64,000 bases of DNA from a virus (Duplodnaviria; Heunggongvirae; Uroviricota; Caudoviricetes). The DNA lies in IMG/VR virus record IMGVR_UViG_651053022_000007, positions 1-64,000 of that record. One strand, 5' to 3'. Position numbers: made by a program. Of the stretch, positions 9,001 through 15,000 are shown one piece after another; position 1 is the stretch's first letter; each line of letters opens with the position of its first letter.

Positions 9001-12000
9001 GGCTGGATGTGTGCACCACGTCCACAGACGGATACCACTGAACGCCCTGATAACCTGGCTGATGCCGCCTGATGAACAACCACACCGCCCCGCCGGAGAC
9101 GGGGCGGCAGCAAGGGAGATACCGTGATGAAAACTGAACTGACCCTGAATGTATTACAGACCATGAACGCACAGGAATATGAAGATATCCGGGCTGCCGG
9201 AAGTGATGAACGCCGTGAGCTGACTCACGCCGTGATGCGGGAGCTGGATGCGCCGGATAACTGGACGATGAACGGCGAGTACGGCAGCGAGTTTGGCGGC
9301 TTTTTCCCCGTCCAGGTCCGTTTCACGCCTGCCCACGAACGTTTTCACCTGGCGTTATGTTCACCGGGCGATGTCTCTCAGGTCTGGGTGCTGGTTCTGG
9401 TGAATGCCGGTGGTGAGCCGTTTGCGGTGGTTCAGGTACAGCGGCGGTTTGCATCGGAAGCCGTCAGCCATTCACTGGCACTGGCGGCGTCACTGGATAC
9501 GCAGGGGTACAGCGTTAACGACATCATCCATATCCTGATGGCGGAAGGAGGTCAGGTATGAGCGTACGTTCACAGGCACTGGTTCCCCTCAGCACAGAGC
9601 AACAGGCCGCATGGCGGGCGGTGGCGGAGACGGAAAAACGCCGCCATCAGGGTAACACGCTGGCGGAATATCCGTATGCGGGGGCGTTTTTCCGCTGTCT
9701 GAACGGAAGCCGCAGGATATCGCTGTCTGACCTGCGATTTTTCATGCCGTCCCTGACCGCAGAAGAACTGCGTGGCAACCGTTCTCAGTGGCTGTATGCC
9801 GTCGATGTGCTGATTGAAACACAGGGCGAGGTCTGCCTCCTTCCCCTTCCCGGCGATGCAGCAGAGCAGTTGTTCCCGTCAGTGCGGTTCCGTGTCAGGG
9901 AACGCAGTCGCCATAAATCCGCACTGGTCATGCAGAAGTACAGCCGTCAGCAGGCGAGGGAGGCAGAGCAGAAAACCCGTGCGTACCAGGCGCTGGTTGC
10001 TCAGGCAGAAATCGAACTGGCGTTCCATTCACCGGAAACAGTCGGAAGCTGGCATGCACGCTGGAGTGACCGGGTGGCAGAGCATGACCTGGAAATCCTG
10101 TTCTGGCAGTGGGGCGAGCGTTTTCCGTCACTGGCCGGAATGGAACGCTGGCAGTGGCAGGATATGCCATTCTGGCAGGTCATCACAGAGGCTGGTATGG
10201 CGGCAAGGGAGGCCGGTCATGCCGTCCGTGAGATGGAGCGGTGGATGGTGCCGAACAAACTCCGGGAGGCGGCGTGAAGTGGCGTTACTCACTGCGCTGG
10301 AAACTGCCTTATCCCTGTCCTGGCGAGCATGAACTGGTTTCAGAAGTGGTGGAGGCGGGGCAGCCTGCTCCGGCATCCGTTATGTCACGCTGGGTTGCCG
10401 GAGCAGGGTATGCGGTCTGTCTGGATTTTATTTCTGACCGCCCGGTGCGCCGCTGGAGCGAAGAACGTAAGGCTGCGGTACGACGGCGGAATCTGGAGAA
10501 ACGTATCAACAGGCATGCACCACTGTTTGCGGATGAACTGATAGCCCGTGAACTGGCTGAACGACCGGATTATTTTCAGGGAAAGTGAGTGTGGTCAGCG
10601 TGCAGGGATATGAGCTATGATGTGCCCGGCGCTTGAGGCTTTTTGCCTCATGACGTGAAGGTGGTTTGTTACCGTGTTGTGTGGCAGAAAGCAGAAAGCC
10701 CCGTAGTTAATTTTCATTAACCCACGAGGCCCACTGTATGTCTAACCAACACCAGTATGGCCTCTTACCGTGCAAATTGCAAGGAGGAGTAAACCATGAA
10801 ACTACCGGGAAACGCCCTTATCTGGTGCGTATTAATCGTGTGCTGCACGTTGTTGATATTCACACTCCTGACCCGGAATCGCCTGTGCGAAGTCCGGCTG
10901 AAGGACGGATACAGGGAAGTTACGGCAACAATGGCTTACGAATCCGGCGGTAAGTAGCAACCTGGAGGCGGGCGCAGGCCCGCCTTTTCAGGGCTGATGC
11001 TGGTCTGACTGCACTGAAGCGCCTTTATAAAGGGGCTGCTGGTTCGCCGGTGGCCCCTTTCTCCTTGCTGGCATTGTGCGGGCATGAACAACCAGACTGC
11101 CAGGAAGGCCGTTTCCCTCCGGGAACGGGGAAGAACGCGCGCCTGCGGCGCCCGTTCTTTTCCCCCGCCTTCTCTGTTTATGACCTGTCAGAAATCACAT
11201 CACCTTCCCTTTGATTATTCTCTTTTTCCTCCTGTTCTGACTCTGATTACTGCTGCCCTGATTATTGTCTGTTTTGTTGTTCTCCTGGCTGTGTCTTTTC
11301 CGGGCGTCCCCCTGGCGGGCTTCCATCCCTGACGCGAAACCCCGGGCTTGCAGCGACCGTTCCGGTCGCGCCGCCTCGACAAAAAAGCAGCAGAAAAAGC
11401 GGCTGCTGAAAAGGCTGCAGCTGATAAGAAAGCGGCAGCAGAGAAAGCGGCAGCCGACAAAAAAGCAGCAGAAAAAGCGGCTGCTGAAAAGGCCCCTTCC
11501 TCAACAAAATAGCTGTTTATTTATACAGTAAGTCCTGTTTCGGACTTCTGTTGGCAAAACTGATCATTGCCCTTAAAACGACATCGCCCGCAGCCATCAC
11601 TGACCGCGGGCGAAAGTGTAAAGCAGGTGCCTTACCACCCTGACCTGACAACCGGATATGCGGGGATTACTCCCATAAGCGCTAACTTAAGGGTTGAACC
11701 ATCTGAAGAATGCGACGCCTCGGTGCCTCGTTAAGACGATGCCTCGCGTTCTTCAATTGCGTTTTGTAGGCTGTCAGGGATACTGTCCCACGAATGGCCA
11801 CCTGTAAGCTCCAGATGACCATTTTTGTTATTCTCCACAACGAGTTAGTTCTTCTTTTCGGATCCGGCACTTCTGGGGGGGAAATCCAGCGATGGCTGGA
11901 TTATGTCGTCAATTAAAAATGCGGCGAGTAGATTAGCAAATATCCACGCTTTCGCGAGTTCAGGTTCCTTTGCACGCAAAGCATCCAGGTGCAGCAAACT

Positions 12001-15000
12001 TTTGAGCCGCTTAAAAGCCAGTTCAATTTGCCATCGCAGACGGTAACAATCAGCCACTTGCTCTGCTGAATATTCATCTTCCGGTAATGATGTTAGCAAT
12101 AGCACATGGCCCGCTGCTTCCAGCGTTTCCGCCTGAACTACTCGTCCTTTTCGACGATTCTCGCTGAGCAGTCGGGTTTTACTGATTAATGCTTTTTCGG
12201 GAGGAAGTGATACGGCAATGAGACGTGCCGGAAAGGGAGCTCCGGCTTTTTTATTACCTGAATTGCCTATCATTACAGTGGTTTCACCGTTCTTACCGCA
12301 ATCCAGCCCGCGCAGAAAACCCATCATGTCAAAGCGCATTCCTTCTGCAGTTAACCAGCGCAATCCTCGCCAGTGAACCCGGACGATATAATCAGCTTCT
12401 CCAAAAGCAAGTGAGCGGATACATTCGGGACGCGAACCGAATCCCCGGTCAGCAATGCGTATCTCGTCTGCCGTTTGCGCAAATCGGTCCAGCCGTTCAG
12501 CGTCTCTGCTGTCGGTTAGCTCAAAATCAGTGAACTGACAGGTATGAGGATCATATCCCATATGTAGTCGCCATTCAGCGCTGCCGCCCCCGGGCGCACT
12601 GATTGCTGTTCCATCGACAAGACGCAATCTCTTTCCGCTTGTACAACCCGTAACTGCGGCGCGTACAGCAAGTGTTTGTGCGGCAAGTATGCCAAACCAG
12701 TCGGCGGCATTCCGCAGCCGCTTCAGGAGAGCCACGTCAGATAATGTTGCAACGTCATGGAGCTGAGCCCATGCAGTGACTTCACGTAATGACATCCCCC
12801 CGGGGCCGTAAGCCAGCCCCAGACGTAGCAGAGTTGCAGCATCACGAATTTCGCGGCGGCGGGTTAGAGCCCCGGCATTACGTGCCGAAGTATCCAGTTC
12901 TTCGGGCTTACCAATATGGGCCAGAATTGCTGACCAGTTATCGTGAGAGTAATTCATCGGCACGTTAAATCATATCAGGCGTAATACCACAACCCTTAAG
13001 TTAGCGCTTATGGGATTACTCCCCGCACAACGGCTACTTCTTCGGTTCGTAAGCGAGACGGTGATAAAGCCATCGTCAACAACGACGGCGACAATGCCAT
13101 CAGCAACGGCGGCACCGGCACGCAGATTAATGGCGATGAAGCCACTGTAAACAATAACGGTAACACCACCGTTGATGGTCAGGGCTCAGAGAATAAAAAT
13201 ACCTTTCCGTTGATAACAGAGAGCATGATTTTTATTATTCGAAGAAACTTTGTTACAGTGAGATGAGTGAATATATGAAGAATGAAATACTGGAATTTCT
13301 GAACAGGCATGATGGAGGGAAAACGGCAGAAATTGCGGAGGCGCTGGCGGTAACGGATTACCAGGCCCGCTATTACCTGTTATTACTGGAAAAAGCAGGT
13401 ATGGTTCAGCGCTCACCATTAAGACGGGGCATGGCAACATACTGGCTTCTGAAAGGAGAGAAGCAGGCGGGGCAGAGCTGTTCTTCCACAACTTAATAAC
13501 TCAATCTGTGGGCATGCTTCACTGAAACAGATAAATGTCAGCGCCAGTGATATAAGGCGTAACGACTAACAATCTTGGCGTTGACAGATGTTTCTTTTCT
13601 AATTTACTGAACCGGCGCAGACTTACAGAAAAACACTCCGGCACCGGTGTAATGCCAGTTATAATCAATAAGAATAGAATGACGAATCAGTCAGGAATAG
13701 CTATAACCTGCAGGCTGACTGGAGAATGTCTGCAAGAAGATGAACGTAAATGTCGCCAGCACCAGGGGCAGGGCCGGCTTCCACAATACCAGCGCTGGCA
13801 TTTTGCACATTGCCAGCGTACCGGCATTACAACACGTTTCATGCTGCTGCCCCCCGGGATTCCTCGATTCGTTGCTGCATCCACTGCTCCACTTCACTTT
13901 TGTACCAGCGGCTGCTGCGCCCCAGTTTGATGGGTTTAGGGAAATGACCTTCACTGATCAGCTTGTAAAACCATTTATCTGTCATGCCAGTGAAACTGGT
14001 GATGTAGTTCATGTCGATCAGGGGATCGTCGGCACGCAGCAATACACTGTCGTGGCCTGTTATTGAGGTCAACATAGTCAGGATATCCTCTGTGAGATTT
14101 ATGAAGGTTGAGTAAATGCGGGTGAATCTGCTGAACTGAGCTTTCAGAGCTGGCCTGCTACCGGATACCAGGGATTACCGGCAAGGTAACGGGCTTCCGG
14201 ATCGCGTACACCACGACGATCGCGGGCGAAATCACTGAACGCCCAGATCAGCGCTTGAAATATCTCTTCGCAGTCCGGTGAACGACTGTCCAGCACCACA
14301 TCCCGGGTTATCTGTTTCTGGTACGGTGCCGCTTCACCCGGTGACATGAAGCCCAGTACGTTGCTCCAGGCATCAAGAATCAGCCGATCCAGTTCAGAGC
14401 CATCGAAATACTCCTGTCTGACGCACAGCACCACGTGGTATTCCGGCTTTTCAGGATGACGAGTCAGGAGCCAGCAGAGATCACGTCCGGAGGTTACATT
14501 CATCAGCGCACTGACGGTTTCGATAAAGTCCATACCGAACCAGATCTTTCTGCTGCTGAAGGTACGGTCATATTCACATGGCAGACGAAGCAGGATCCGT
14601 CGTATCCGGGAGCCGGACTGCTCACGCAGCGCACGCTCAAGGATACCGATGATTTTGTTCTGATAAGACGGCCAGAAGGGTGCCAGGCTATAGTCGAAAT
14701 AAGGAATAGCATTCATAAGATATGTTCCGTTATGCGCAGCCCACAATGCGTCCTGCCCGTGAATGAGCTGACGTGTTATGGCTTGCGGATGAGATTGATG
14801 GAATAAGTGAAGAACTGAAGCAGAACGGGAAGATAAGGGAAAGAACACCGGATGCAGGTTCAGGGGGAATGATCTCCGTTGACTTCGGTTCACATCATTA
14901 ATCAAGGCGGTAAGTTTTTACCGACGGAGTGTTTCCAGGAGCGGAGGCTCAGACCTTAAGCTTCAGAAGTGAGGCTTACGAGGACGCCCTGCAGCAGGAC

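Follow-up and report, generated by a model that had tools for sequence, protein, structure and literature searches.

Apparent fusion of an IncF leading region with tolA, hokE-IS186 and pap DNA probably reflects short-read contigs written end to end

IS186 downstream of hokE is said to have been described by Pedersen and Gerdes in 1999, and the annotation of Escherichia coli K-12 directly shows the element at that place. The K-12 copy, IS186B (insL2, b0582), occupies 608007-609351 of NC_000913.3, while in ST131 chromosomes hokE and IS186 form units that stand in tandem. The preferred target of IS186 is GGGG(N6/N7)CCCC (PMC6925257). In a stretch of 64,000 nt taken from an IMG/VR record (the window), an initial annotation drew such an element together with a leading region: a short membrane-anchored ORF was seen one TGA away from an Ala/Lys-rich tail, followed by IS186 inserted into a reading frame. 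On re-reading of the sequence all the elements described were found where they had been placed, and none is biologically new: the tolA repeats, the IncF leading region and an IS186 copy in the hairpin at hokE are all known. The region in question (11084-13266) crosses four joins, and sequence comparison indicates that the window very probably consists of contigs from a short-read assembly (de Bruijn graph, k=39) strung together without spacers, rather than being one natural molecule. The apparent finding would then comprise five contigs set end to end, namely a plasmid leading region, a tolA repeat loop, the chromosomal hokE-IS186 locus, an adhesin repeat unit and a papI island, and the assembled isolate would be an ST131-like E. 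coli with an IncF plasmid.

The hokE-IS186 segment and its right-hand neighbours

The third piece (11494-13056, minus strand) is derived from the chromosomal hokE locus and contains the 3' end of hokE, IS186 and the downstream spacer toward the next hokE copy. Positions 11494-13058 are 100% identical to the ST131 chromosome NZ_CP103508.1 (3001-4565 of the fetched locus). The K-12 locus is 99.9% identical to 11584-13058, with the same element, orientation to hokE, insertion point and duplication and nothing of substance different, and the tandem units of ST131 chromosomes carry the same insertion as the window. IS186, a member of the IS4 family, spans 1339 bp on the minus strand (11674-13012) and has perfect 23-bp terminal inverted repeats, CATAAGCGCTAACTTAAGGGTTG at 11674-11696 being the reverse complement of 12990-13012. 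The InsL transposase is intact, with an open minus-strand frame at 11845-12963 to which the annotated coding sequence corresponds at 11845-12957, and the matching reference regions are labelled IS186/IS421 transposase. Inverted repeats, InsL frame and reference annotation together bear out the original naming of the element. Also upheld is the 10-bp target duplication, GGATTACTCC, which stands on both sides of IS186 at 11664-11673 and 13013-13022 and reaches 12 nt when the outer G/C, which is ambiguous, is included. Removal of IS186 and one copy of the repeat restores GCGGGGATTACTCCCCGC, and the restored target site, GGGGATTACTCCCC, fits GGGG(N6/N7)CCCC with a duplication of ~10 bp: the GC-rich palindrome noticed earlier forms a hairpin, GGGG-N6-CCCC, of the kind that IS186 prefers.

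Of hokE itself the window holds the last eight codons (LAYEPKK and the stop; 13034-13057, minus strand), read from the sequence and matching the annotated hokE of the K-12 and ST131 loci; a complete hok frame with its upstream regulatory RNA is lacking because the contig ends there, at 13056-13058. The hokE stop lies ~21 nt from the end of IS186, in the hairpin, as in K-12. The isolate presumably has a single copy of IS186, which would be why the contig runs through the element.

The initial annotation placed the insertion in the plasmid leading region. Fresh transposition into a hairpin there would agree with the perfect inverted repeats, the duplication of 10 bp and the GGGG-N6-CCCC sequence, which fits the target consensus (PMC6925257). 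The flanks of the element, however, 170 nt on the left and 44 nt on the right, match the chromosomal hokE locus at 100% identity, K-12 and ST131 are both annotated with the insertion at this very nucleotide, and a hairpin of this kind is absent from IncF plasmids at the corresponding position. Transposition into the leading region is thus exceedingly improbable; the insertion is in the hairpin 3' to chromosomal hokE. IS186 in this GGGG-N6-CCCC hairpin, just downstream of hokE, is the sole real element of the finding, and its presence at hokE is already known.

The fourth piece (13057-13187, plus strand), initially read as a further repeat copy (D), is a unitig of 131 nt that stems from the repeat region in a BigA/YdbA-type autotransporter adhesin gene. 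It is 100% identical to CP054253.1, where it occurs at nine places, and comes from a gene of 8.5 kb whose family was assigned with NCBIfam and Pfam. An origin in entS, suggested by the label "EntS/YbdA" on the 8.5-kb gene of CP054253.1, was rejected: NCBIfam and Pfam give a BigA/YdbA adhesin, and K-12 entS does not match. The fifth piece begins with 75 nt upstream of papI followed by papI (13263-13496), together 13188-13496 on the plus strand, and belongs to a chromosomal pap island; from 13187/13188 on, the window and ST131-type chromosomes agree at 100% identity. Once IS186 and one copy of the duplication are excised in silico, a reading frame is indeed open from 11567 across the adhesin-repeat fragment as far as a TGA at 13264-13266, as had been noticed. 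No coding frame is interrupted, however, the pieces on its path being unrelated contigs.

The plasmid ORF and the Ala/Lys tail

The first piece (5960-11377, plus strand) is an IncF leading region with ssb, a parB-like gene, psiB, psiA and hok/sok, and it ends inside a plasmid-internal repeat; its last 38 nt (11340-11377) occur in two copies in the reference plasmid CP088405.1. The Rfam sok family (RF01794) matches at 10627-10798 on the plus strand with 96.9 bits, upstream of the hok-family toxin gene and overlapping its start (10796-10957, plus strand; from the ORF list, with a Hok/Gef annotation in identical plasmids). Downstream of hok lies an 82-codon ORF (11084-11332, plus strand) that contains the hydrophobic stretch VLTLITAALIIVCFVVLLAVSF and terminates with TGA at 11330-11332. 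It is 100% identical, TGA included, in many IncF plasmids, where it is usually unannotated and rarely called as a gene. Past the TGA its frame stays open to a TAG at 11510-11512 and encodes ...DKKAAEKAAAEKAAADKKAAAEKAAADKKAAEKAAAEKAPSSTK.

This tail is the second piece (11378-11493, plus strand), a loop contig of 116 nt that derives from domain II, the Ala/Lys repeat region, of the chromosomal tolA gene and keeps the reading frame of that gene. Many E. coli chromosomes have this sequence in tolA at 100% identity, and the match to K-12 tolA is 98%. Its length is that of a 78-nt period with 38 nt of overlap added, the first 38 nt being the same as the last 38 nt. The 38-bp tandem repeats of the initial annotation correspond to these two identical copies (11378-11415 and 11456-11493), which do exist but stand 78 nt apart rather than as contiguous tandem units; Tandem Repeats Finder gives periods of 15 and 33 for the tail. 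The likeness to TolA domain II is 116-117 nt of identical DNA in the same frame, whereas a TolA gene would comprise an N-terminal anchor, domain II and domain III. The window has only a 39-codon internal fragment of domain II, with neither anchor nor C-terminal domain.

The common frame, broken by a single TGA, had raised the possibility of one gene carrying a nonsense mutation, of programmed read-through or of two genes, and a selenocysteine codon may be added to the list. None of these holds. The frame relation is present, but the tail matches tolA at 100% identity and begins at a join that lies 45 nt past the TGA. Homologous IncF plasmids keep the TGA and have wholly different sequence past 11377: the leading region of pF16EC0455-2 (CP088405.1), for example, is 100% identical to 10700-11377, including the 82-codon ORF and its TGA, but real IncF plasmids continue with a ~450-bp plasmid-internal repeat, then a small ORF, a DUF945 gene, an SLT transglycosylase gene and traM, where the window has tolA DNA. 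Read-through or selenocysteine insertion would leave a frame that homologues conserve before and after the stop, but the homologues are without the downstream part, and in diverged homologues the upstream ORF is broken in all five examined, by loss of the ATG, by a stop at codon 17 (two plasmids), by a stop after codon 38 or by a frameshift. Comparison of homologues, which the initial annotation had proposed, yields no two-gene arrangement either: the TGA is kept and the downstream part is absent in the IncF homologues examined. No junction-spanning ORF was found in the protein collection. A single gene made of ORF and tail is scarcely conceivable and, by the homologue comparison, already refuted. 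The 82-codon ORF is not conserved and is most likely non-coding, and the match of frames across the TGA is a coincidence, with a chance of one in three given the shared strand.

Fragment ends and exact repeats

The first line of evidence is where the pieces end. In a test of fragment ends against the unitig ends of the reference loci, run for k from 15 to 115, all seven testable ends coincided with unitig ends at k=39; k=38 and k=40 came next with four of the seven, and no other k did better. The test allows for 1-2 nt shared at joins, and with exact blast coordinates the tolA and hokE ends did not match. The two ends of the hokE-IS186 piece are the k=39 unitig ends 3001 and 4563 of the fetched NZ_CP103508.1 locus, both ends of the tolA piece are likewise k=39 unitig ends, and the adhesin piece is exactly one such unitig (3001-3131 of the fetched adhesin locus). 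For the plasmid piece, compared with one reference plasmid, the end at reference position 24738 lies 3 nt from the computed k=39 unitig end at 24735, an offset that requires the isolate's copy of the repeat to differ slightly.

The second line of evidence is the repeat content of the window. Its maximal exact repeats stop at 39 nt, with four at exactly 38 nt and a single one at 39 nt, and the sole recurring 39-mer is a product of the join base at 11377; this is the pattern of concatenated de Bruijn-graph contigs, where each k-mer is unique and exact repeats accumulate at a length of k-1. A second array, at 28099-28160, equals 24+38 nt, and a contig bearing tRNA-Val stops exactly 38 nt into tRNA-Lys. 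Small pieces nearby are classic repeat contigs (REP, IS1, an IS3-family piece, tRNA and adhesin repeats).

These features have to be weighed against a real mosaic, in which the IncF leading region was fused to chromosomal fragments (tolA, hokE-IS186, adhesin and papI) by successive illegitimate end joining, for instance after plasmid integration. The four successive joins have 1, 0, 2 and 1 nt common to both sides, the 0-2 nt microhomology that end joining gives, and the pieces all come from one kind of genome, ST131-like with IncF. End joining has no reason, however, to break at k=39 unitig ends in seven cases out of seven, nor would it be expected to trim tolA to precisely one period and 38 nt more, or to set a 38-nt ceiling on exact repeats across 64 kb. 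Moreover, the arrangement occurs in none of the collections searched: it was not found among 72,556 plasmids (PLSDB) or 5,426 complete E. coli genomes, one junction (A) was not found in GTDB species representatives or IMG/VR viral contigs, another (B) was not found in JGI metagenomes, and exact look-up of six junction-spanning ORFs among ~15 billion proteins returned none. Such a mosaic is very unlikely. That the joins are real and that capture of chromosomal fragments by end joining gave the leading region a membrane-anchored ORF one TGA away from a TolA-like Ala/Lys tail is a shade more doubtful still. A chimera of restriction-site ligation or cloning was also rejected, the joins showing, by eye, neither GATC nor a restriction site that fits both sides.

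A further possibility is that the assembler itself took wrong turns, the joins being chimeric paths through the graph rather than a later concatenation of finished contigs. The coincidence of fragment ends with graph nodes at k=39 agrees with this, but adjacent fragments share no 38-nt overlap and are therefore not graph neighbours, which makes wrong turns extremely unlikely. With either origin the adjacency is artificial. For the favoured concatenation of finished contigs, which we infer from these patterns, the joining would have taken place in the source record or in the step that built the window.

Join-crossing features and draft-assembly pseudomolecules

The biological adjacency of the pieces was not confirmed, and the in-frame relations arise from the joining of unrelated contigs: because these are written in series, an ORF with an in-frame tail after a TGA, and a frame interrupted by IS186, appear. 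Since the contigs are joined without spacers, any finding that crosses a join in the window is an artefact, and other windows of the same source are probably alike. Candidates for join artefacts include a truncated traI of 1610 codons, cut at 5758, whose TraI product was not found by exact look-up, a C-terminal fragment of the Sat autotransporter (16399-18048) and the scattered "repeat copies". Such cases can be flagged cheaply: maximal exact repeats cluster at a single length (38 in the window) that none exceeds, and short arrays measure one period plus precisely this length.

Among the closest known counterparts of the window are draft-assembly pseudomolecules, in which contigs are concatenated without N spacers. 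There, too, fragments end at the branch points of a graph of one k, no repeat is longer than k-1, tandem arrays shrink to a single period with k-1 added, and tiny repeat-derived contigs stand between larger ones; no difference from the window was found.

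Origins of the pieces

The region 11084-13266 of the initial annotation divides into pieces that each show 100% identity to a separate source. The first (10700-11377) matches many IncF plasmids, including hok, an 82-codon ORF and its TGA, and this IncF piece carries an Rfam sok family match at 10627-10798. Positions 11377-11493 match chromosomal tolA from many E. coli genomes, within its Ala/Lys-rich domain II and in its own frame, 11494-13058 match the tandem hokE locus of an ST131 chromosome, 13057-13187 match a single repeat unit within a gene of 8.5 kb, and the sequence from 13187/13188 matches the papI region of ST131-type chromosomes. 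The 8.5-kb CDS (CP054253.1 141328-149844) is labelled 'EntS/YbdA MFS transporter' in the public record, which is an annotation error; NCBIfam and Pfam assign it to the BigA/YdbA autotransporter adhesins.

Real IncF plasmids diverge from the window after 11377, reading ...GCCGCCTC up to the breakpoint and TGTCGCGCC... beyond it, where they continue into a small ORF, a DUF945 gene, an SLT transglycosylase gene and traM. The nucleotides common to both sides of the four joins number 1, 0, 2 and 1. The arrangement was not found in 72,556 plasmids or in 5,426 complete E. coli genomes; of the joins between pieces, junction A was not found in GTDB species representatives or IMG/VR, nor junction B in JGI metagenomes, and junction-spanning ORFs had no match among ~15 billion proteins.

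IncF leading regions contain a repeat of ~450 bp in two to three diverged copies, which lie upstream of ssb and downstream of hok (window 5960-6234 and 11337-11377; CP088405.1 19120-19574, 24698-25152 and ~15763-16200). Two such copies bound the leading-region contig; these repeats may be single-strand promoter (Frpo/ssi-type) elements.

The signature of a k=39 assembly

The tolA piece consists of 78+38 nt, its first 38 nt identical to its last 38, as expected of a tandem repeat that a de Bruijn graph with k=39 yields as a loop contig. Unitigs, the unbranched stretches of such a graph, were computed on reference loci with k running from 15 to 115, and seven fragment ends were tested: the start and end of the tolA, hokE-locus and adhesin pieces, and the tRNA contig end at 19674. 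At k=39 all seven testable ends fell on unitig ends, allowing for the 1-2 nt common to each join; k=38 and k=40 each fitted four of the seven, and any other k at most three. The adhesin piece coincides exactly with a single unitig (3001-3131 of the reference adhesin locus, L008). Maximal exact repeats across the whole window include four of exactly 38 nt and none above 39 nt, the sole 39-nt repeat arising from the join base 11377. Against this fit, the plasmid contig stops 3 nt away from where the unitig of the single reference plasmid ends; the isolate's copy of the repeat would have to differ slightly. Neighbouring fragments have no 38-nt overlap in common, and so must simply have been written in series. 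Judged from sequence, the headline feature is a contig-concatenation artefact, and contig boundaries need to be respected in window building.

The ORF, its tail and IS186

The 82-codon ORF (11084-11332) encodes a 22-residue hydrophobic stretch and ends in TGA. As the initial annotation had it, the same frame is open past the TGA; it runs for 59 more codons ending ...DKKAAEKAAAEKAAADKKAAAEKAAADKKAAEKAAAEKAPSSTK, to a TAG at 11510-11512. The tail, however, is tolA DNA and the adjacency artificial. Sequence comparison thus places an Ala/Lys tail downstream of this ORF in no real molecule, and the common frame is chance. The proposed 38-bp tandem repeats do exist as two identical 38-nt copies (11378-11415 and 11456-11493), but these lie 78 nt apart and are the assembler's k-1 overlap; Tandem Repeats Finder reports periods of 15 and 33 in the tail. 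Among five diverged IncF homologues of the ORF, the ATG is lost in one, a stop occurs at codon 17 in two and after codon 38 in one, and one has a frameshift. The protein collection also holds frameshifted versions of 168 and 197 residues, gene callers seldom call the ORF, and most records leave the site unannotated. The ORF is not conserved as a gene.

IS186 (11674-13012) has an unbroken minus-strand transposase frame, perfect 23-bp inverted repeats and a 10-bp target duplication, GGATTACTCC, at 11664-11673 and 13013-13022. Its removal with one duplication copy restores GCGGGGATTACTCCCCGC, and a frame is then open from 11567 to the TGA at 13264-13266. On the minus strand the hokE piece supplies the final eight hokE codons (LAYEPKK plus stop, 13057 to 13034); ~21 nt beyond the stop lies IS186 within a hairpin, an exact match to the IS186B arrangement in K-12. 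The hairpin is a GGGG-N6-CCCC site, in agreement with the stated target preference of IS186 (PMC6925257), and the claim of insertion into a favoured GC hairpin holds. The claim that IS186 interrupts a frame running into 'repeat copy D' (13057-13187) does not: that frame spans the hokE-locus and adhesin contigs and then crosses the further join at 13187/13188. By its sequence context, IS186 is placed in the 3' hairpin of chromosomal hokE and interrupts no frame. Insertion into the plasmid leading region was rejected, this piece being identical throughout to the ST131 chromosomal hokE locus.

Another weak point of the artefact reading is that a contig running through IS186 would require the isolate to have a single copy. 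NZ_CP103508.1 (ST131; region 3491873-3499437) and several other chromosome matches carry the 1851-bp hokE+IS186 unit twice in tandem, both times with IS186 at the same hairpin position and with loops one base apart (GGATTGCTCC vs GGATTACTCC).

Other fragments and known elements

The piece at 19558-19674, a complete tRNA-Val plus exactly the first 38 nt of tRNA-Lys, is a mini-contig of the lysT-valT tRNA cluster. An identical 38-mer occurs at 16155-16192, the start of a Sat autotransporter fragment, and at 20090-20127, the end of another; these fragments are true graph neighbours left unjoined. The array at 28099-28160 has a 24-nt period and spans exactly 24+38 nt within a minus-strand ORF (27687-28502) adjoining a lambda-P-like replication gene. 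The k=39 assembly probably collapsed a longer tandem array here, and the ORF as written may lack some repeat units. Small nearby pieces (REP, IS1, an IS3-family fragment and more adhesin repeats) are the usual repeat-derived mini-contigs. Fragments at ~591-709, 15894-16027 and 18206-18300 have 26-32-nt exact matches to the adhesin repeat; they are probably further mini-contigs of the same giant gene and the other 'repeat copies' of the initial annotation. The 1610-codon traI ORF (within 994-5959) is cut by a contig end at 5758, past which its frame enters a REP/BIME-like fragment (5759 to ~5870); an IS1-like fragment (~5871-5959) follows, so that the traI-to-ssb adjacency is also artificial.

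None of the elements themselves is new: IS186B next to hokE was already known, and so were the hok/sok leading region of IncF plasmids, the repeats in tolA domain II and those of BigA/YdbA-type adhesins.
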